Positions 13,699 through 33,968 of a DNA stretch of 33,968 nt are shown here, piece after piece (position 1 is the stretch's first letter; each line of letters starts with the position of its first letter). Below the pieces are notes generated by a model. It worked only from the letters and a program-made list of their open reading frames with translations. It was not told where the DNA came from and did no database searches. Origin of the DNA: a virus. Its lineage: Duplodnaviria > Caudoviricetes. Made by a program: the position numbers and the translations under genes. Location: the IMG/VR virus record IMGVR_UViG_3300048598_000398, positions 1 to 33,968 of that record, one strand, 5' to 3'.

Positions 13699-13720
13699 CC
13701 TTTCCTTTTTTGTTATTTTT
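13699..13720 (+). terminator. Archaeal oligo-T terminator of the structural operon
   Basis: CCTTTCCTTTTTTGTTATTTTT immediately after the stop. Confidence 0.6.
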
Positions 13721-13757
13721 GGTAGCCTGTTTGGGCTCTCAAGCCTTTTAGGGGTTG
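13718..13757 (+). promoter_or_regulatory. Late promoter element, copy 2
   Basis: 36/40 identical to 33824-33863; upstream of the membrane/terminase operon. Confidence 0.75.
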
Positions 13758-17399: not shown

Positions 17400-17585
17400 A
17401 TGTCAGTTGTTGATTTAACTCGTCCTTGTGATGGTTGTGGTAAAATGGTTGGTGGCGGGTTTCATACTTGCCCGGCGTGTGGGCGTGTTTTTTGTGGTGT
17501 TTGTTGCTTCTTTTCATTTAGAAATCAAAAGTTTGATTCTTGTTTTGTTTGTGGGGTTAGGTTGAAGGGGAATTATTATGGTTGA
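17400..17585 (+). CDS. C4C4 RING-like Zn-finger protein (61 aa, likely leaderless)
   Basis: C-x2-C-x10-C-x2-C-x4-C-x2-C-x12-C-x2-C; TTTAAA box at 17369-17374. Confidence 0.65.
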   Translation: MSVVDLTRPCDGCGKMVGGGFHTCPACGRVFCGVCCFFSFRNQKFDSCFVCGVRLKGNYYG

Positions 17586-17597
17586 TGATCGCTGAAA

Positions 17598-17792
17598 TTA
17601 TGGGTTGCCTGTTGGTTTTTCTCCTGCTTTTTGTAGGAGTTGTTCTATGAGTTTGAGGTCTTGGTTGATTGGTTGCATGTGTCGGCAGCGGCTGAGTAGT
17701 GTGCGGAATGCTTCGCCGTCTGGTCTTTTGCCTGTTTCTATGTATTCTTTGATGAGTTGGCGTTCTTTGTCTGTCAGTATGTATTCGCGCAT
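17598..17792 (-). CDS. Small helical putative repressor, switch 1
   Basis: Divergent from 17925 across the operator array; TATA about 30 nt upstream. Confidence 0.7.
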   Translation of the reverse strand: MREYILTDKERQLIKEYIETGKRPDGEAFRTLLSRCRHMQPINQDLKLIEQLLQKAGEKPTGNP

Positions 17793-17834
17793 TGGTTATC
17801 TGTTAGTGTTTTAGCGGTAGGTTATATTTAAAGT

Positions 17835-17910
17835 GTTACTGTTATAGTAGCGGATTTTGATTTTGTTACTGTTATAGTAACGCTTATAAGTTTGTTACTA
17901 TAATAGTAAC
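17835..17910. promoter_or_regulatory. Three 17-bp palindromic operators (17835-17851, 17865-17881, 17894-17910) interleaved with divergent TATA boxes
   Basis: GTTACTGTTATAGTAGC, GTTACTGTTATAGTAAC, GTTACTATAATAGTAAC; TATA elements at 17822-17832 and 17883-17890. Confidence 0.85.
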
Positions 17911-17924
17911 TTGAGGAATAACAG

Positions 17925-18107
17925 ATGATGGCTAAACAAATACTTATGAAAAAAATTCCAGCAGAAAATTATTCGTACTGCAGCTGCAACAAAACTTGCC
18001 CAGAGTTTTACAATGGCATAATAGCTTGTACTCTGCGTCAGGAAAATGGTGAGTGCCTAAGGCTCAAAACTGCTGCAGTAGAGGCTTTGAGGAGTATTTG
18101 CTTATGA
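17925..18107 (+). CDS. Small Cys-rich protein
   Basis: GAGG SD; first rightward gene of switch 1. Confidence 0.65.
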   Translation: MMAKQILMKKIPAENYSYCSCNKTCPEFYNGIIACTLRQENGECLRLKTAAVEALRSICL

Positions 18108-18445
18108 TGGATAACGCGAAAGTTGAGCAACAACATCAATTATACCTAAAGCATCGTGAAGAGAAGCATCTTGAGGAAGAAGCTGCAAAAGCTGAAACTC
18201 TTAAGCGACGGGCAGAGCTAGCCGAGCGGTTAGCCAAGATTCAGAAGGCTTGTGAGCCTCATGCTGCAACAGTTATCAAAGCGCACAAGTGCACTAGCTG
18301 TCATGCAACTATTCCCAAAGGTAGCAGGGTAATGGTTGAGGGCAATGTTACTCGTGTGCCGATCAGTTATGCTGCAGGCAGCTCTATTGCTCAGTTTCGA
18401 TCTGTGTATTTCTGCAATGCTTGCCGGCCTGTTAAGGAGGCTTAA
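18104..18445 (+). CDS. Coiled-coil plus treble-clef-like Zn-finger protein
   Basis: HKCTSC...YFCNAC; ATGA overlap with GAGGAG SD. Confidence 0.7.
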   Translation: MMDNAKVEQQHQLYLKHREEKHLEEEAAKAETLKRRAELAERLAKIQKACEPHAATVIKAHKCTSCHATIPKGSRVMVEGNVTRVPISYAAGSSIAQFRSVYFCNACRPVKEA

Positions 18446-18447
18446 AG

Positions 18448-18711
18448 ATGCACGTTTTACATAGTTCTTGGCGTGCTCTGCTCAATGACATATTGCTTAT
18501 CACTTGTGTATTTGGCAGTACTGGTATTGCTCTGAAATTTGTTTACTTCCAAGTGGTGCTTAATCTGAATTTGTATGCTGGCAACGTGGTTAAGGAAGTG
18601 ATTTTTCCGTTTTTCCCCAATTTGCTTGATAGTGTAGTTCTGATTTTGAGTGCTGTTTATTTTGTTGTGCGTCTTAGATTGATTGAGAGGCGTTTGAAGA
18701 GGGGTGCTTAG
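18448..18711 (+). CDS. Two-TM membrane protein
   Basis: Two hydrophobic helices; GGAGG SD. Confidence 0.65.
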   Translation: MHVLHSSWRALLNDILLITCVFGSTGIALKFVYFQVVLNLNLYAGNVVKEVIFPFFPNLLDSVVLILSAVYFVVRLRLIERRLKRGA

Positions 18712-18713
18712 GC

Positions 18714-18893
18714 GTGGTTGATGTGTTTGAGCGTAAGGGTTTGCCGGCAGAGTTTGTTATGGATAATTGTTTGCCAAGGTTTTTTGGCAGATCGGGTGTT
18801 GACTGTGCAAGTCTTCATAGGTTAACTGAAAAAGGCGTTGTTGAGTGCACTGTTAAGGTGTGCCCTAAAATTGATGGTTTGGGTAAAAGGTAG
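18714..18893 (+). CDS. Small Cys-containing protein (59 aa, not in ORF track)
   Basis: GAGGGGTG SD, GTG start, open to TAG 18891-18893. Confidence 0.55.
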   Translation: MVDVFERKGLPAEFVMDNCLPRFFGRSGVDCASLHRLTEKGVVECTVKVCPKIDGLGKR

Positions 18894-18962
18894 GCTTCCG
18901 CTGAAGGGAAAATGGCTGTTAGAATGTTTAACTATCAGCCTACCAAGGAAAGCGGAAGCCTA
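18891..18962. other. Structured element: 12-bp perfect outer stem plus inner stem-loop
   Basis: TAGGCTTCCGCT...AGCGGAAGCCTA enclosing GGCTGTTAG/CTATCAGCC. Confidence 0.6.
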
Positions 18963-19044
18963 AGTTTGATGTTGTTTGGTTGTGCTTTTAAGGCTTGTTC
19001 TTGTTTTGGGTAGAAGATTTTTACATTGTTCTTTTCCATTGCTG

Positions 19045-19052
19045 TTTATATA
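19045..19052 (+). promoter_or_regulatory. TATA box of the pilin gene
   Basis: TTTATATA followed by an AGGAG SD before ATG 19096. Confidence 0.6.
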
Positions 19053-19095
19053 GCGATTGAGGGTTTAGCGTTAGTAAAAAGGAGAAGGAAAAAAT

Positions 19096-19572
19096 ATGAT
19101 ATTTAATCTTAGAAAAGTTCGTAAAAATGTGAAAGCAATTTCACCAGTAATCAGCGTGTTGCTTATGATTGCAGTTGCAGTTGTAGCATCACTAGTAGCA
19201 TATGCTTGGGTCATGGGATACATGAATTTCCAGACTGCTAAAACAGGCCAAGCAGTTCAGATCCAAAGCGTTGCCTTTGCAGCGGATGAAACTCCTGGAA
19301 CAGGCATGAATGTTACTGCAATTTATGTCCAAAATATTGGCGATGGTACCGTCAGTTTTGCTCCAAATCAATGCTTATACGTTAATGGTGCACTCGTTAC
19401 CGATACAACATCAGCAGTTGCTCCAAGCCCTGCAACATTAACTAAAGGTGCAACTGGAACAATCGATGTCGCTGCTATTACAGGCCTTAATTTTGCATCC
19501 GGTGAAACTGTAGTTTTCAAGGTTGTTGTTGAAGGCGGAACATACAGCGAAGTTAGTCAGATAGTTCCATAA
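19096..19572 (+). CDS. Archaeal type IV pilin (class III signal peptide)
   Basis: Basic leader, KA/ISPVISVLLMIAVAVVASLVAYAW hydrophobic helix, IYVQNIG beta-sandwich motif. Confidence 0.9.
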   Translation: MIFNLRKVRKNVKAISPVISVLLMIAVAVVASLVAYAWVMGYMNFQTAKTGQAVQIQSVAFAADETPGTGMNVTAIYVQNIGDGTVSFAPNQCLYVNGALVTDTTSAVAPSPATLTKGATGTIDVAAITGLNFASGETVVFKVVVEGGTYSEVSQIVP

Positions 19573-19610
19573 ATTGGCTTAACGCCAATACTCTTTTTAT
19601 TTTATTTTTT
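19573..19610 (+). terminator. Hairpin plus T-tract terminator after pilin
   Basis: ATTGGC-TTAAC-GCCAAT then CTCTTTTTATTTTATTTTTT. Confidence 0.65.
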
Positions 19611-19770
19611 CTGCTTTTAGGGTTTGTTGGGTTGTGTATGGCGGGTTTTGTTGTTCTGTTTCGAGAATGATTTGGTCGTTTATTTGCCACTTGAGTTCAG
19701 TTAGCATTTCTTTAGGTATGCTGATCACGGTGCTGTTGCCGATTTTGCGGAGTTTGACTATTTTTTTGAT
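19597..19770 (-). CDS. AbrB/MazE/SpoVT-family DNA-binding protein (no canonical start; ATC or ATA)
   Basis: IKKIVKLRKIGNSTVISIPKEMLTELKWQINDQIILE; not in ORF track. Confidence 0.75.
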   Translation of the reverse strand: MKKIVKLRKIGNSTVISIPKEMLTELKWQINDQIILETEQQNPPYTTQQTLKAEKIK

Positions 19771-19803
19771 GGCTGGTCCCTGAGGGCTAGCGTTTGGTTT
19801 TTT

Positions 19804-19835
19804 GCTTATAAATACGGGTATATCCGTGGATATAC
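19804..19835. promoter_or_regulatory. TATA box plus palindrome GTATATCC-GT-GGATATAC, switch 2
   Basis: Perfect 8-bp arms at 19818-19835 adjacent to GCTTATAAATA. Confidence 0.6.
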
Positions 19836-19932
19836 AGAAAGTCGCTTTTGTTGAACAGTATCACATCTATTAGGAATAATAGAAGTGTTAAAAAGCACTT
19901 GGTTTAATTGGCTTTTCTGGAAGAGATTAAAC

Positions 19933-20136
19933 ATGAGTGGGGTAACAAAAAGCACAGTTTTAACTAATAATGATGTAAAAAGTTGGGATGACTGTTTGGA
20001 AGCCGTTGAGTTAATTATTGCCAAGAGTAAGGATTTGCAGTCGGCTGAGCGCAGTGTTAAGCGGTTGCATGGCCTTGTGAAATCCTCTAAGTTTGAGAAG
20101 ATTCGTCATGAGTTGGGGGCTTTTGGGTTATTCTAG
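19933..20136 (+). CDS. Small helical hypothetical protein (ATG 19933)
   Basis: Divergent from AbrB, convergent with RHH-1. Confidence 0.65.
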   Translation: MSGVTKSTVLTNNDVKSWDDCLEAVELIIAKSKDLQSAERSVKRLHGLVKSSKFEKIRHELGAFGLF

Positions 20137-20325
20137 AAGTCCTAGCTCTCTTAGTCTTTTTCTGATGGCGTCTAAAATGAAGTCTGCTCTGTTTTGGTAG
20201 CCGTATTTTTCGCTTTCAACAACGTCATCGACTCTTTTCATTAATGAGTTGGGTATTGAGACGGTTGTGTAATCTCTTGGTTTGGTTGATTTTTTTGGCG
20301 TTGTTGATTCTTCCTTACCGGTAAT
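20128..20325 (-). CDS. Ribbon-helix-helix regulator RHH-1 (putative ATT start)
   Basis: RDYTTVSIPNSLMKRVDDVVESEKYGYQNRADFILDAIRKRLRELGLLE; not in ORF track. Confidence 0.8.
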   Translation of the reverse strand: MTGKEESTTPKKSTKPRDYTTVSIPNSLMKRVDDVVESEKYGYQNRADFILDAIRKRLRELGLLE

Positions 20326-20398
20326 TAAACTTAATGGAAAAGCTTATAAGGTTTCTGGAACTATCATCTATAACATTAATCTACATTAAGTTTAATTA
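20322..20398. promoter_or_regulatory. Divergent promoter with perfect 15-bp inverted operators, switch 3
   Basis: TAATTAAACTTAATG (20322-20336) and CATTAAGTTTAATTA (20384-20398) flank the palindromic TATA CTTATAAG (20343-20350). Confidence 0.8.
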
Positions 20399-20413
20399 AA
20401 TGTGGTGTATAGA

Positions 20414-20575
20414 ATGGCAGAAAAAGAATGCGAAGAGAGAGATTATTCGACTGTTAGTCTTCCAAAAGATTTGCTAAAAAAAGTCGATGATGCTCTTGCG
20501 AAGGGCGGTTATGCAAACCGTGCTGATTTTGTACGTGATGCAATTCGAGAATTACTAAAAACAGTAAGTGCTTAG
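20414..20575 (+). CDS. Ribbon-helix-helix regulator RHH-2 (53 aa)
   Basis: MAEKECEERDYSTVSLPKDLLKKVDDALAKGGYANRADFVRDAIRELLKTVSA; not in ORF track. Confidence 0.85.
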   Translation: MAEKECEERDYSTVSLPKDLLKKVDDALAKGGYANRADFVRDAIRELLKTVSA

Positions 20576-20792
20576 GAGGGTTTGAGGTTTTTGGGGTTGA
20601 AGCTTTTCTCTGGTGATGGTGCTTTTGGGGAGCGTAATTTTGCGTTCTCCTTTCCCATAGTTACCCCAGCAGTTTGCTGCCCAAACAGAAACCTTGCGGT
20701 TCCTCGGCGTCTTTGGCGTTTGTGTCGGGGTTGGATGGTTGCGGGTTAGTCGATAGCGTTCATAGTTGAAAAGGAAGAGAGGGAAAATATGT

Positions 20793-24110: not shown

Positions 24111-25457
24111 ATGGTTGAACAGATGCTTCCTGTTTTTCAGCTGCAGGCTAACAAGTTTAATCCTAACGTGATGCAGCCCGAAGAGTTTGAGGCGTTGAAG
24201 GCTGACATGAAAACGGTTGGTCCTAAACGCATTGATTCTGTTCTGGTCAGTCCGTACCTTGCTTTTTATCCGTGTGAGGATAATGAGGAGAATCGGGCGT
24301 TTTTTGCTGAGCATCCAACTTACGTTATAGTTGACGGTGAGCATCGTTGGCGTGGCGCCTCTGATCTTAAGTGGGGAGAGCTCCGCTGCGATCTTGAGGA
24401 GATTAGTGAGGAAGATGCTAAGGGTATTTGTTACCGTAAAAGTAAGGAACGCGGCTCTATTGACCCGTTTAAGGAAGCTGCGCTTTTCAAGAGTGAGGTT
24501 GATGTTGGCCTTACTCAGAAGGAGATTGCTGAAAAATTCATCATTGACTCCTCGACGGTTAGTCATCGTTTGAGCCTTTTGCGGCTTGTGCCTGAAATTA
24601 AAGAGAAAATCTCCATGATGCCACGTGGCACAATCACGCCGAGTCACTTAGAGCCGATTGCAACACTACCGGAAGAGGAGCAAAAGAAAATTTCCTTTAA
24701 AAATCAATGGGGAAATCAGGAGGTTCGATCTGTTAGGGACATTTCGGAAGATGTTCAAAAGGTTAAAGCTGACCTTAAGCGGAAAGAAGATCTAAAAAGG
24801 GCTCTTGAAACGGCTATTTTTCCAAAATGTCCTAAATGTGGTGCTGAGCAACTTCCTGATATTTTCCATGGATTGCCCTGGGTTGACTGTTCAAGTGGTA
24901 ACCATAATCATTCTTGGAACCTAGATACGGGTAAAGGACATTATGAGCAGGAACAAGCAGAACAACACAAAATTAACGGTGACAAGCCTGAGCCAATACA
25001 AACAAGTGTTCTACGTTGTGCTCATACTGTTGCAGAATTAAGCAACACTTTTGAACAGCGAATTAAGGATTTCTTTCCCAAAATTCTAAAGATTGAGCAT
25101 TTTGCGGTTAGAGGAACGATTGAAGGTAAAGTGCCGTTCAGTATTGACTTCTCAAATAATGCACCACACAGCCTGACAGTTAGCCTAAACATCAACCATG
25201 GGTATGCAAACTTTAGAGCTGAAGCAAAAGAGTATCGGAGTGGTGAAAAATCTAAGGTTGATACTTATTCGCCTGCTAACGTTGATCCTGTTAGGGAATT
25301 TATTGAGCTAGCTTTTCAGGGTAAGCTTGATGTTCCGGACAAAAAGTCAAAGAAGGCGCCTGAGTTTGGCACCTGTAGCAGTTGTGGTAAGGAGAACGCG
25401 GTTCTTGTCGGCGACAAGCTTTGCGGTGAGTGTTTTGCTGAGGAGGAATCATCTTAG
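24111..25457 (+). CDS. parB: ParB/Srx-family protein with HTH and Zn fingers
   Basis: FNPN, IVDGEHRWR, HTH LTQKEIAEKFIIDSSTVSHRLSLL. Confidence 0.85.
   Translation: MVEQMLPVFQLQANKFNPNVMQPEEFEALKADMKTVGPKRIDSVLVSPYLAFYPCEDNEENRAFFAEHPTYVIVDGEHRWRGASDLKWGELRCDLEEISEEDAKGICYRKSKERGSIDPFKEAALFKSEVDVGLTQKEIAEKFIIDSSTVSHRLSLLRLVPEIKEKISMMPRGTITPSHLEPIATLPEEEQKKISFKNQWGNQEVRSVRDISEDVQKVKADLKRKEDLKRALETAIFPKCPKCGAEQLPDIFHGLPWVDCSSGNHNHSWNLDTGKGHYEQEQAEQHKINGDKPEPIQTSVLRCAHTVAELSNTFEQRIKDFFPKILKIEHFAVRGTIEGKVPFSIDFSNNAPHSLTVSLNINHGYANFRAEAKEYRSGEKSKVDTYSPANVDPVREFIELAFQGKLDVPDKKSKKAPEFGTCSSCGKENAVLVGDKLCGECFAEEESS
24619..24630. promoter_or_regulatory. Palindrome TGCCACGTGGCA, parS-like copy 2 (inside parB)
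   Basis: Identical to 3557-3568. Confidence 0.5.
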
Positions 25458-26029: not shown

Positions 26030-27535
26030 ATGGTTGTTGGGGAGGGAAATGCTGATCTTGCTTTTGAAGCTTCTGAGCGCGTATTTGGCAATGGTATGCA
26101 CCTTACGGAAGCCCCCTTTGTAAAGTTAGCCGGTGAAGGCCCTGTGTGCAAGTCAGGTATTTTGGATTCTTGTGGTGAGCCAAGTCCTGCCGGTGTCAGC
26201 TCCCAAATCCCCAACTGCCCAAACAACTGTAAAACAGGCAAAATCTACCGCGCAGGCCTACGCTACAATGAAAACGGTTCAACGGTTCAGCGTTGGAAGT
26301 GCACGTGCTGTAAGCAGCGGTTTTCTGACAAGCCTTTAAAAAGTTCTGGCTCCTTAGATAGTGTTCGCCAAATATGCGCAAAAGGAGCGAAAAATTTGTA
26401 CGTGCCAAAGGCGAAATGCTATGGCACGGGAGAACTGCCAGAAGAAACTAAAGCGGCCATAACAGTCTTTGAAGGTTGGCTAAGAAAAGAAGGCTACGCT
26501 GAAAACTGTTACCCAAGTGACATTAAAACATTAGCTTACCTTGGCTGTGACTTAATGGATCCTGAAGACGTTAAAGCCAAAATCGGTGTTCACAAGGTAA
26601 AGAACGGTACAAAGATGCTGCTGTGCTATGCTTACGAAGCTTTCCTAAAAATGCATAAAATGAGTTGGGATCGTCCTGTTTACAGGCAGGAAGAAATTAT
26701 TCCCTTCATCCCTGAAGAAGCAGAGCTTGACCAGTTGATTGCTGCATCTCATAGTAAACGTATGGCGGCTTATCTGCAGACGCTTAAAGAAACTTTCACT
26801 GATCCCGGCGAGGCTCTACTGATTGACCGCAAAGACTTAGCAGGCAAATTCATAACGATTAGGCATCCAGTGAAAAATCATAGGCCAAGAACACTTGAGG
26901 TTTCAGACAAATTAATTGCAATGCTTAACATGTTGCCTCATGATTCGGAGCGTTTCTTTCCCTGCAAGTACAATACGATGTGTGGCACTTTTATCACTTT
27001 GAAACGCCGCGTCGCCTCTATGTCCCATAATGACAGAATCAACTATATTGAGTTGCGATCTTTTCGGCATTGGGGCGGAACTACTGTTGCTGAGCTATCG
27101 AATGGAAACCCGATTTCAGTTATGAAAATGCTGGGCTTAAAAAACGTTGATAATGCGATGAAGTACGTTAACATTTGGAAACTAAGCTTTAGAACAGAAA
27201 CTGATTACGAGTTTTTGGCAGTTACTACGCCTGAAGAATTGAAGGCTGCTTTGTTTGGTGGTTATCAGCATGTGATAGACAAGTTTGGTGCTTCATGGTT
27301 CCGTAGAGCAAAGCGTATTGCGATTGCTGGGACTCCGATTAGTCAAAGACCGGATTTGCCGCAGTGTCCCGACGTTGAAACCCCAATTAATAAACTGGAA
27401 ACCCGATGTCATAAAGCCTTATCACTGACGACAGGCGATGTCTCCCGTGCTCCTCCTTCCTCCTCTTTTTCTTTGGTCTTTGGCGTCTGTTTATTTCTTG
27501 TATTAAACGTGGAGGTTGACCGTTTTGAGCGGTGA
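26030..27535 (+). CDS. Tyrosine recombinase-fold protein with IS1 InsA-like Zn ribbon; degenerate active site
   Basis: CPNNC...QRWKCTCC; box I ETFTDPGEAL; box II RSFRH...LGLKNVDNAMKY. Confidence 0.85.
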   Translation: MVVGEGNADLAFEASERVFGNGMHLTEAPFVKLAGEGPVCKSGILDSCGEPSPAGVSSQIPNCPNNCKTGKIYRAGLRYNENGSTVQRWKCTCCKQRFSDKPLKSSGSLDSVRQICAKGAKNLYVPKAKCYGTGELPEETKAAITVFEGWLRKEGYAENCYPSDIKTLAYLGCDLMDPEDVKAKIGVHKVKNGTKMLLCYAYEAFLKMHKMSWDRPVYRQEEIIPFIPEEAELDQLIAASHSKRMAAYLQTLKETFTDPGEALLIDRKDLAGKFITIRHPVKNHRPRTLEVSDKLIAMLNMLPHDSERFFPCKYNTMCGTFITLKRRVASMSHNDRINYIELRSFRHWGGTTVAELSNGNPISVMKMLGLKNVDNAMKYVNIWKLSFRTETDYEFLAVTTPEELKAALFGGYQHVIDKFGASWFRRAKRIAIAGTPISQRPDLPQCPDVETPINKLETRCHKALSLTTGDVSRAPPSSSFSLVFGVCLFLVLNVEVDRFER

Positions 27536-31369: not shown

Positions 31370-32686
31370 TTGGTAAAGAAAAAACGCATAGTTAAACACG
31401 GTTCAAAACGTCCAGTTCAACGGTTCAATAAGTGTTTTGAACAAAGGCATTCTGTCAACGGTAAACGGTTTACTGGTAACTCTGAGAATGGTGTCTTGCC
31501 TGAGCCTCTGCCAAAGAAGGCGTTGAAAATCCTTAGCGTTTTAGCGGCTAATGGTGTTGCTGGAGAGGCTATGGTTGCTGCTGACTGCGTGAAAAGCAAT
31601 GTTTCCTATTGGGCTAACCGTTTTGTTAAGGCAGGGGCGCTTGTTTTACGAGAAACTCAGGTGCCTAATAGTTCAGGTCCTGTTGGAAAAACTCCTGAGT
31701 ATAAGCCTGGGCATCCGCGTTATTATGACTTGACAAAGCACGGTTCAACACTTCTCACGCTGGGTGATGGTCGTTTGTATTTGCCGATTTTGTTTGAGGA
31801 TCGTCCTTTGATTTTTAAGGTTTTGCAGCGTGAGAATAAGGCGATTCCTTGGAAGCCGATGGGTAATGTGCGGTTTTGGCATAAGAAGGGTATCATGTTG
31901 GCTGGTGTTACGGTTGAGTTGCATGAGGGTTTGGGTCCTAATCATGATCAGGCTAATGTGATGATTCATCCTGGTCACGTTAAGGGCTTTAATGTTGATG
32001 AGTTGATGATGGATTCTGCGCGTATTGTTGAGCAGGTTAAGTTCTTTTTGGAGTCGACTTATGGTATTGTTTTGGAATCGAAGGGGGAGTTGCCTAAGCG
32101 TAGGGATGGTGATGGTCCGATCAGGCCGCGGTGGCATGTTTATGATCCGATTGTTAAGCAGTGGATGGAGTCGGGTTCTGTTGAGATTCCTGGGTATGGT
32201 GCGGCTGATGCTAGTCCTTTGCCGTCTAAGCATGGTGTTCGTGATCCGTTGAGTAATGAGCCTCATTTTGAGTTTGAGAATCCTGCTGATGCCAAGATTG
32301 CGGCTTCTTTGTTTCCTTTTACTTATGATGCTGGTAAGCAGCGGTTGATGGATGGTTTGACTGCGCCGGCGTTGATTAGGGCTACGCATGAGCAGGTGGC
32401 TTCTATGGTTTGTCAGATGTTGGATTTGAAGCGTCAGTTTGGTGTTTTGACTGTTGAGTTTAACAAGGTTAAGGCTGAGACGTCGCAGGTTGGCGGTGTG
32501 ATGGCTGAGTTGCATCGGTTGGCTGATGCTTTGTGTAAGCTTGATAATTTGGATAAGTTGCCAAGTATCGCGGTGGACCTGCAGCGGATTGCTGGTGTGT
32601 TGGGTAAGTTTACTGATTTAGAGGCTGGTCAGGGGAAGGATCCTGCTGCTGCAGCTGGTGAGGGAGGCAAAGGGTATGTTTCTTAA
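31370..32686 (+). CDS. wHTH-containing protein, candidate replication initiator
   Basis: HTH KSNVSYWANRFVKAGAL, central alpha/beta domain with DASP...EPHFE, C-terminal coiled coil; followed by periodic repeats. Confidence 0.5.
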   Translation: MVKKKRIVKHGSKRPVQRFNKCFEQRHSVNGKRFTGNSENGVLPEPLPKKALKILSVLAANGVAGEAMVAADCVKSNVSYWANRFVKAGALVLRETQVPNSSGPVGKTPEYKPGHPRYYDLTKHGSTLLTLGDGRLYLPILFEDRPLIFKVLQRENKAIPWKPMGNVRFWHKKGIMLAGVTVELHEGLGPNHDQANVMIHPGHVKGFNVDELMMDSARIVEQVKFFLESTYGIVLESKGELPKRRDGDGPIRPRWHVYDPIVKQWMESGSVEIPGYGAADASPLPSKHGVRDPLSNEPHFEFENPADAKIAASLFPFTYDAGKQRLMDGLTAPALIRATHEQVASMVCQMLDLKRQFGVLTVEFNKVKAETSQVGGVMAELHRLADALCKLDNLDKLPSIAVDLQRIAGVLGKFTDLEAGQGKDPAAAAGEGGKGYVS

Positions 32687-32742: not shown

Positions 32743-32904
32743 TAAAAGTTGCGGTTTTGGATGTGACTGCTTGTTTAAAGCATGTTTTTGGGTGGGTGCT
32801 GGGGCATGGGAAAAGTCCATGCTTTTCGGGTTGGGGTTTTGTGCGGTTGCTTAGTCCTGATTGGTTGGTGTTAAAGTTGTTGTGCGTTGATGGAGTGGAA
32901 TATC

Positions 32905-33441
32905 TTGAGTGAACACAATGAGCAGTCTTTAGGCGGTTTGCCTGTTCAATCGATGGAAAAAAGTGTTGGAAAAGTTAAGGTGAAGCGTAGTGCGGAGGAG
33001 AAGGTTGGGCGGATTAAGTATAATCAGGTTTTGCTTAAGCGTGCGATTTCGATTTTGGAGAAGGTTGAGGAGACGCAGCGGGTTATTTTGAATGGCCTTA
33101 AGGGTGCTGGATATTTCCGTTTTAGTGTGCCTTTGATTCAGCGGTATGCAACTTGTGACGCCGTCGACGTCGACATAATCGAGCTAATCAAAGAAGCTGG
33201 TAATCAGGGTGTTTTTCCTAAAGATGTCGCGGCAGGCCTGCAGCAGTACAAGCTGGAATATTATGATGTTAGTCGCCGGATCGTGAGGATGAATCGCCGT
33301 CTGCAGCTGGAGACAGGTGAGCTGCTTTTTGAGAAGCGCGGTCATAAGTGGGCGCTTACGAGGTTTGGGTTTGAGGTTTATGGCGCCGGTGACGTTTTAG
33401 ATGTGAACGCTAGCGTTGTGGTTCCTGAGGAGGATTCTTAG
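32905..33441 (+). CDS. Winged-helix DNA-binding protein
   Basis: DIIELIKEAGNQGVFPKDVA...VSRRIVRM...FEKRGHKWALT. Confidence 0.7.
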   Translation: MSEHNEQSLGGLPVQSMEKSVGKVKVKRSAEEKVGRIKYNQVLLKRAISILEKVEETQRVILNGLKGAGYFRFSVPLIQRYATCDAVDVDIIELIKEAGNQGVFPKDVAAGLQQYKLEYYDVSRRIVRMNRRLQLETGELLFEKRGHKWALTRFGFEVYGAGDVLDVNASVVVPEEDS

Positions 33442-33823: not shown

Positions 33824-33863
33824 TTTGGTAGCCTAAACGGGCTCTCAAGCCTTTTAGGGGTTG
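33824..33863 (+). promoter_or_regulatory. Late promoter element, copy 1 (upstream of the protease across the circular junction)
   Basis: TTTGGTAGCCT-AAAC-GGGCTCTCAAGCCTTTTAGGGGTTG; 36/40 identical to 13718-13757. Confidence 0.75.
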
Positions 33864-33968
33864 CCTTAGAGAGTTTCTTTCTGCTAAGAGTAGTTGGCCT
33901 TTGTTGGCCTGTTAGGTGTGTTTGAAGGGATATGGCTGGCTCTTGTGGTTGTGGCAGTTGCAAGGATT
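33842..33968. repeat. Terminal direct repeat copy (equals 1-127)
   Basis: Exact duplicate of the window start. Confidence 0.95.

Follow-up and report, generated by a model that had tools for sequence, protein, structure and literature searches.

The region between positions 17,598 and 20,575 of the IMG/VR virus record IMGVR_UViG_3300048598_000398 (33,968 nucleotides, analyzed in full and called the window here) is best read, with a probability of roughly 60%, as the immunity region of a temperate tailed virus of Bathyarchaeia. As judged from sequence comparison, it would consist of stacked cassettes with back-to-back promoters: a master switch formed by two ribbon-helix-helix (RHH) proteins (unit 3), a relay formed by an AbrB regulator and a small gene named WDDC (unit 2), and an independent switch formed by a 64-residue regulator named R1 (unit 1). 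The original prediction for this DNA had proposed a single layered lysis/latency circuit, built from three regulators, for control of the early operon and of a gene for surface exclusion. The present analysis retains the view that these are regulatory units of an archaeal tailed virus, probably temperate given its integrase match, with unit 3 facing the early operon; it does not retain the single circuit.

The last 127 bases of the window (33842-33968) are identical to the first 127, and the contig therefore represents a circular genome of 33.8 kb. Scans against Pfam (30 proteins) and PHROGs (29 proteins), which covered every open reading frame (ORF) of the region and left about 25 other ORFs outside, detected a large terminase (TerL), a capsid protein, a tape-measure protein, a ParB-like protein and a tyrosine-integrase-like protein. 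As to the host, three of five genomic R1 loci are good matches, all from Bathyarchaeia (the other two are partial chance matches), and the pilin homologues that carry names are Bathyarchaeia pilins. The virus is probably a temperate tailed virus of these sediment archaea, the temperate part of this reading resting on the integrase match.

The genome is covered by plus-strand ORFs apart from three gaps of more than 250 nt (17586-17924, 19573-19884 and 20137-20401), each of which holds one leftward gene, and the long minus-strand ORFs outside these gaps all lie within plus-strand genes. A codon-usage score did not separate the three minus-strand genes from shadow ORFs, so the claim that they are real rests on the gaps and on homology. 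On that basis the proposal that these are the only credible minus-strand genes of the genome, that they lie within 3 kb and that they encode small putative DNA-binding proteins was upheld: they correspond to the 64-residue helical protein, to an AbrB protein (PF04014, 28 bits against a cut-off of 24.7) and to an RHH protein (phrog_38461, 3e-14). The stand-alone pilin gene placed between units 1 and 2 is also real. It had been overlooked that in unit 3 the rightward gene also encodes an RHH protein, paralogous to the leftward one, and that canonical start codons are missing from two of the three regulators. The element GCTTATAA has four plus-strand copies genome-wide, three of them in the intergenic regions of the three units, a clustering expected with a probability of about 7e-6 under random placement (a post hoc test that ignores AT-richness). 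The CTTATAA-type TATA boxes are present in all three units as proposed, but the copy in unit 2 suits the AbrB gene and not the rightward gene; of the distinct operator sets, the repeats exceed shuffled sequences in unit 1 (16-nt direct repeat, p=0.001) and unit 3 (perfect 15-bp inverted repeat, p=0.001) but not in unit 2 (inverted repeat, p=0.17). Scanning for sigma-70 promoters is not applicable here. A look-up of expression evidence listed no sequencing run for 17500-20700, which does not mean that none exists.

The rightward RHH gene (20414-20575, plus strand; PF01402, 30.6 bits against a cut-off of 20.5) occupies a Cro-like position at the head of a long plus-strand region with the ParB and integrase genes, and unit 3 is therefore the best candidate for the master switch. 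The leftward RHH protein (20128-20301, minus strand), the likely master repressor with a likely ACG start, falls below the Pfam cut-off (RHH_8, E 0.015); both proteins match phrog_38461, and they are paralogues with 52% identity. The control region between them (20315-20398) starts with TTACCGGTAA at 20315 and contains perfect 15-bp inverted arms (20322-20336 and 20384-20398), which enclose a palindromic TATA box (20343-20350) with purine-rich flanks on both strands, and ACATTAA words at 20373 and 20383. Orthologous RHH pairs were found in genomes G110 and G340, with leftward genes 81% and 73% identical to that of the window, and the intergenic regions of both keep TTAC-NN-GTAAT and CATTAA-like words. 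Divergent RHH pairs were present in 9 of the best 30 RHH loci among 401 genomes of the host class, as well as in locus L002, and a second family of divergent paralogue pairs, with a weak profile match to RHH (E 5.5e-4, probability 30%), occupies the same slot in L135, L136, L138 and L146. An insensitive pattern scan of viral contigs with the rightward RHH gave no matches. In the proposed mechanism both promoters would share the single palindromic TATA box. Weakly made from ACG, the leftward RHH would keep the rightward promoter closed in the lysogen, and with the onset of lytic transcription its rightward paralogue would turn off the leftward one.

In unit 2, the AbrB/MazE-fold regulator (19597-19770, minus strand), which likely starts at ATC, has an orthologue that scores 29.6 bits with PF04014. 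The CTTATAA element reads as TTTATAAG on the minus strand (19805-19812) and is taken as the TATA box of the AbrB promoter. As a promoter of the rightward gene it was rejected, being about 120 nt from the ATG of that gene with a T-rich upstream stretch; the rightward gene has a different box of its own about 40 nt before its ATG, where an imperfect palindrome followed by TTAAAAAG (19864-19895, plus strand) is the likely WDDC promoter. Immediately ahead of the AbrB TATA box, a perfect 8-2-8 palindrome (19818-19835) is a candidate AbrB site that does not stand out from shuffles as an inverted repeat, and a different 18-bp palindrome is found at a like place in provirus G316. A GC-rich hairpin (19772-19791) lies directly 5' of the ATC codon on the minus strand, over a Shine-Dalgarno (SD)-like run. 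No toxin gene was found downstream of the AbrB gene, which ends at a terminator-like stretch facing the pilin gene, and a role of AbrB as the antitoxin of a MazEF-type toxin-antitoxin pair was rejected for lack of a toxin gene.

The rightward gene of unit 2, WDDC (19933-20136, plus strand), encodes a 67-residue three-helix protein that has no Pfam family and only generic three-helix matches in structure searches (best Z 6.9). Its stop codon overlaps that of the leftward RHH gene. The WDDC family is small (10 of 401 genomes and four viral contigs), and the close WxDC form is present in 9 of the 15 loci examined. At eight of these nine close loci WDDC reaches over the stop codon of a convergent small gene of regulator-like type; these partners encode one Pfam-supported RHH protein, four proteins that are RHH-like by pattern and three winged-helix-like proteins (one with a weak PadR match), and at the ninth one gene is inserted between the two. 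Because this stop overlap is kept whatever the fold of the leftward regulator, WDDC was assigned to the master switch and not to AbrB, and its linkage to unrelated folds favors a generic protein target or convergent transcription. The AbrB gene also faces WDDC in provirus G316 (TerL 74%), where the pair precedes a winged-helix gene in leftward orientation and homologues of the next early genes of the window. WDDC would accordingly be a candidate antirepressor under AbrB control, and a link from unit 2 to unit 3 through WDDC is plausible: AbrB would repress WDDC, loss of this repression would switch WDDC on, and WDDC would neutralize the leftward regulator as a protein, via convergent or antisense transcription, or both. 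Elsewhere in the family, the WDDC-RHH cassette of G340 (L116:6440-7310) adjoins a gene resembling a host ribosomal protein, so that the cassette may mark the end of an integrated element, and CRISPR-array-like repeats lie upstream of a block of WDDC, winged-helix and integrase genes in G094 (L147:440-860).

Neither the AbrB gene nor the leftward RHH gene has an in-frame ATG, GTG or TTG before its DNA-binding motif. Five of 14 leftward regulators share this lack between the upstream stop and the motif, namely the two of the window, the two of G316 and the RHH gene of G110, in which an A-run may be an assembly error. One explanation would be that the AbrB and leftward RHH genes have decayed through loss of their ATG, leaving a derepressed virus or a defective lineage. 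The missing canonical starts and the ATG of the G340 orthologue fit such decay, which is nevertheless highly improbable given that both reading frames are intact and conserved (53% and 73-81%, respectively), that ATC occurs at the same codon of the AbrB gene in the window and in G316, where it stands two codons after an in-frame stop, that the ACG of the winged-helix gene of G316 aligns with the TTG of its G201 orthologue, and that SD-like purine runs precede the near-cognate starts. The ACG of the leftward RHH gene would give a protein beginning Met-Pro, as in G340. These features suggest that weak initiation likely limits the repressor dose. Just upstream of the ACG-started winged-helix gene of G316 there is an ATG-TAA start-stop (L126:1960-1975).

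In unit 1, R1 (17598-17792, minus strand) is predicted by homology and structure modeling to be a homodimeric repressor. It belongs to no Pfam family, and its AlphaFold model consists of three helices (predicted local distance difference test score, pLDDT, 87). The homodimer prediction scored 0.64 against 0.00 for the best control, with contacts agreeing by at least 96% between runs and pLDDT of at least 83; the homodimer mark is reached by 20 of 30 solved pairs and by 1 of 23 single chains. No sequence match in PDB and no clear fold match in PDB, BFVD or Atlas were obtained, and, among the best VIA structure matches, those to helix-turn-helix regulators of LuxR/NarL-like type, including EsrB (Z 4.1, root-mean-square deviation 4.0, 55 residues aligned) and DesR (Z 3.5, root-mean-square deviation 2.4, 44 aligned), lie within background. 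The start of helix 2 (residues 24-31) is outside the listed dimer interface of the model and would fit a recognition helix.

Three 17-bp sites surround the two TATA boxes of unit 1 and contain a 16-nt direct repeat. O1 (17835-17851; six of eight arm pairs symmetric) covers the expected transcription factor B recognition element (BRE) of the R1 promoter, whose TATA box is placed at 17825-17832 on the minus strand, at a position relative to the ATG equal to that in homologue loci. O2 (17865-17881; seven of eight) covers the expected BRE of the rightward promoter, which has its TATA box, CTTATAAG, at 17883-17890 (plus strand), and O3 (17894-17910), a perfect 8-1-8 palindrome, lies between this box and the expected start site. 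The rightward promoter precedes four small ORFs, three Cys-rich and one hydrophobic (17925-18893, plus strand), without family matches in Pfam or PHROGs, which likely form an R1-controlled operon and are followed by a 17-nt inverted repeat (18886-18967) as a possible terminator structure. In the proposed order of events, O3 and O2 would be the first sites occupied by R1 dimers, which would close the accessory operon of four genes, and O1 would be bound last, so that R1 would limit its own synthesis. With an operator matrix built solely from O1-O3, these sites score 22.8-24.3 bits and no other site in the window exceeds 14.1 bits; direct control of the other units by R1 is unlikely because no strong site lies elsewhere in the window, and R1 control of the pilin was rejected, there being no R1 site at that gene.

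R1 is predicted to bind O1-O3 because the motif is kept upstream of its homologues. A site was detected with the matrix within 140 nt upstream of the gene at 15 of 21 loci of R1 homologues (p<=0.05 against shuffles), and 16 of the 21 scored above the 95th percentile of 162 control upstream regions (10 duplicate and four chance loci were left out of the set, in which several retained loci are kin). In a second set, restricted to top matches, 15 of 32 genomic R1 loci have a site, and at a threshold of at least 7 bits the count is 17 of 32 versus 2 of 30 downstream controls. Perfect 6-5-6 palindromes occur at 11 of 55 R1 loci against 1.4 expected, the order TATA-site-TATA-site, read by eye, is repeated in L016, L028, L033, L057 and L058, and R1 subgroups with a divergent helix 2 carry other palindromes (L060, L064-L066). 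This phylogenetic footprint argues that R1 likely binds its 17-bp sites and regulates itself. Word-index searches returned only the R1 and WDDC of the window, and the families surfaced in profile and pattern searches; the GenBank phage collection had no match for either protein. The R1 profile search gave 206 clusters at 50% identity, a list with at least one false repeat match, and no Pfam family is common to more than 2 of 123 members. In P0006, P0009, P0040 and P0098 we take R1-like domains to be joined to CBS-like, TIR-like or PAS-like parts.

R1 homologues are present in 126 of the 401 host-class genomes, frequently on their own or in a non-viral context; G316 has some 8 kb of varied cargo downstream of TerL; and the AbrB unit is rare. 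Such observations speak for a reading with unit 3 as the sole viral switch, WDDC as a mere neighbor, and the other two units together with the pilin as unrelated cargo, self-regulating mini-cassettes gathered at a post-terminase hot spot. We consider this improbable, though not negligible, in view of the stop-to-stop overlap of WDDC with leftward regulators of unrelated folds at eight of nine loci and of the second virus in which AbrB, with the same ATC codon, faces WDDC.

The pilin gene itself (19096-19572, plus strand) encodes a full-length, host-like archaeal type IV pilin with 385 homologues (best identity 63%); its score with PF07790 (Pilin_N) is 23.6 bits against a cut-off of 25.2, and many of the 120 homologues listed have PF07790 or pilin/flagellin-like names. 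It has its own TATA box, TTTATATA (19045-19052, plus strand), its own terminator-like hairpin with a T-run before the converging AbrB stop (19573-19612, plus strand) and no repeat above chance near its promoter (p=0.32), and nothing ties it to a regulator. In the lysogen it is likely expressed as cargo, without regulation. The pilin was not found in five related virus records, and scanning viral contigs by pattern, with the pilin sequence or an alignment of pilins, gave no matches, these scans being insensitive and the rarity of viral pilins not inferable from them. Two other temperate viruses are described with a host-like type IV pilin: the SNJ2 PilA1/2 pili serve as receptors for another virus and aid biofilm formation and motility (PMC12426801), and P-FimU of Pseudomonas blocks rival phages (PMC12952977). 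By analogy, an exclusion role for the present pilin would follow one of two precedents.

Against this background the three units could still act in series, R1, AbrB and RHH forming an integrated three-tier cascade that also controls the pilin as an exclusion gene. In favor of this, a 3-kb stretch downstream of TerL contains all of the units, and L002 and L135 each combine unit 1 with unit 3. At the end of the R1-controlled operon of L002 stands an RHH gene convergent with the leftward RHH, through which unit 1 may feed unit 3 there, and two of the three genome copies of TTTCTGGAA (19914-19922 and 20352-20360) fall in units 2 and 3 as a possible shared site. Such a cascade is nonetheless doubtful, since R1 sites above 15 bits are confined to unit 1, the pilin gene and a terminator-like hairpin separate units 1 and 2, the region before the pilin lacks a repeat above chance, and the full set was found in no relative examined. 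For the same reasons (the strong operator of unit 1 occurring only there, and the pilin having its own TATA box and terminator) the single circuit originally proposed finds no support. The expectation of conserved synteny held for the individual units, each of which recurs, but not for the three-unit set: units 1 and 3 stand together in L002/L123 and L135, unit 2 is combined with a different master switch in G316, and WDDC accompanies unit 3 in G340 as well as in four further cases. Stacked, exchangeable cassettes that follow the terminase gene are the best description of the region.

Several observations weigh against the reading as an immunity region of stacked cassettes. No relative examined has all three units, or the pilin; L006, the closest by terminase (TerL 76%), shows none of the units in the examined part downstream of TerL, and searching its record for RHH and pilin genes gave no match; G316 lacks R1 and has the winged-helix gene in place of the RHH pair. 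No attachment site, clear attP or transfer RNA gene was found in the window. The arrangement of AbrB facing WDDC is known from two cases only, the AbrB orthologue being found in 1 of 401 genomes (E<=1e-9), no AbrB gene lies beside most WDDC genes, and six weaker WDDC-like matches show no link to a regulator. About half of the R1 homologues lack a matching site, a divergent ORF is present at only 30 of 55 R1 loci (a crude test), several R1 loci are close kin and the counts are not independent, and a structural match of R1 to a known DNA-binding fold is absent (best Z 4.1). Nine of the 14 leftward regulators have normal starts, and the near-cognate starts could reflect pseudogene decay. Finally, the cI- and Cro-like roles of the two RHH proteins are candidate roles set by gene position alone.

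A more specific version of the stacked-cassette reading, which we regard as tentative, would be a modular induction circuit of Bathyarchaeia tailed viruses, unlike those described so far, in which a fold-independent WDDC antirepressor lies tail-to-tail with the master repressor of the given virus, whatever its kind, and is gated by interchangeable AbrB or R1 switches, with repressor dose set by AUC and ACG starts; R1 would then represent a new archaeal DNA-binding family with an operator code that can be read from genomes.

The closest formal parallel is the right operator (OR) of phage lambda, where back-to-back promoters and three 17-bp operators of graded symmetry serve two related DNA-binding proteins, cI and Cro, with an XRE-type helix-turn-helix (XRE-HTH) and, in the repressor, an S24 protease domain. 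As in lambda, a regulator gene stands back-to-back with an early rightward promoter, as judged from gene layout and TATA boxes; unit 1 has three graded 17-bp sites around two TATA boxes and unit 3 has inverted arms; and two related DNA-binding proteins face away from each other in unit 3, a paralogy that is only suggestive of competition for sites. Unlike lambda, the proteins are of 57-64 residues without XRE-type HTH or S24 matches in Pfam or PHROGs, the promoters are of TATA/BRE type, there is no Cro partner for R1, the unit-3 proteins have RHH folds, and the features are spread over separate cassettes. By analogy the system would work like a lambda-type switch, to whose family it does not belong by protein fold.

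Among archaeal viruses, gp29 and gp30 of AFV6 are reportedly in divergent orientation. The former, AvtR, is a tandem-RHH monomer of a filamentous virus and binds between its own promoter and that of gp30, a second predicted RHH gene (PMC5569661), whereas in the window single-RHH paralogues stand before an early operon, with a convergent WDDC gene, in a tailed virus with an integrase. In phiH (rep/T4) and phiCh1 (rep/ORF49) a repressor gene is back-to-back with a lytic promoter, with mutually exclusive transcription and antisense control nearby (PMC4284463, PMC6210493); those viruses have a winged-helix repressor and one unit, in contrast to the three stacked units, other folds and another host phylum found here. 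ORF4 of SNJ1, a MazE-superfamily master repressor (PMC10123103), is, like the AbrB protein, a stand-alone viral regulator without a toxin, but the present gene faces one small gene and is optional among relatives; MazE-like genes are also described in MSTV1 and gut archaeal viruses (PMC11375127, PMC9800368). The logic proposed for AbrB, WDDC and RHH would resemble that of SNJ2 Orf4/Orf7/Orf8, a repressor with a small inactivator under an upstream regulator (PMC10123103), although no Orc1/Cdc6 sensor or winged-helix repressor match was found among the scanned proteins of the window, and the folds of the proposed relay are different. In the sources consulted, control of lysis and lysogeny is worked out in few archaeal viruses (SSV1, SNJ1, SNJ2 and phiH/phiCh1; PMC10123103, PMC4284463). 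Term searches of PMC10848311, PMC11705971, PMC13573593 and PMC6563490 did not return 'repressor', nor did the Bathyarchaeia virus papers searched mention one, and R1, WDDC and the layout were not described in the literature searched, though supplementary annotation tables of provirus surveys could list them. The arrangement, of which the original prediction knew no described case in an archaeal virus, was not found as a combination in that literature, nor were two of the protein families; back-to-back repressor and lytic promoters, MazE-fold repressors, RHH pairs and virus-encoded pilins have each been described in archaeal viruses.

Outside the region, the ParB-like gene (24111-25457) and the integrase-like gene (26030-27535; phrog_216, 1.8e-6) lie downstream in the early region on the plus strand, the latter mid-region and with a Cys-rich N-terminal part. 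Large early genes without assigned function are found at 31370-32686 and 32887-33441, and homologues of the 184-residue product among them adjoin head genes in G310 and G080, which would suit a late activator. A motif of about 40 nt with an identical 20-mer, at 13719-13756 and 33824-33862 (the latter equal to 1-21), sits ahead of two late-gene blocks (before 13778 and before 91) as a candidate late promoter or activator site. An ATPase-like gene of about 480 codons lies near or after TerL in L005, L006, L002, L135 and L143 and is absent from the window.

What is new about the region would be, more than the number of its units, R1 as a family with an operator of its own, the linkage of WDDC to regulators irrespective of fold, and starts other than AUG. 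The R1 family, for which a 17-bp operator is predicted, occurs in about a third of the sampled host-class genomes. The region would supply testable parts, namely R1 and its operator, a cI/Cro-like pair made only of RHH proteins, a candidate antirepressor linked to repressors of unrelated fold and non-AUG starts that recur, and these predicted parts may be approached with purified proteins and archaeal in vitro transcription, without culture of the host.

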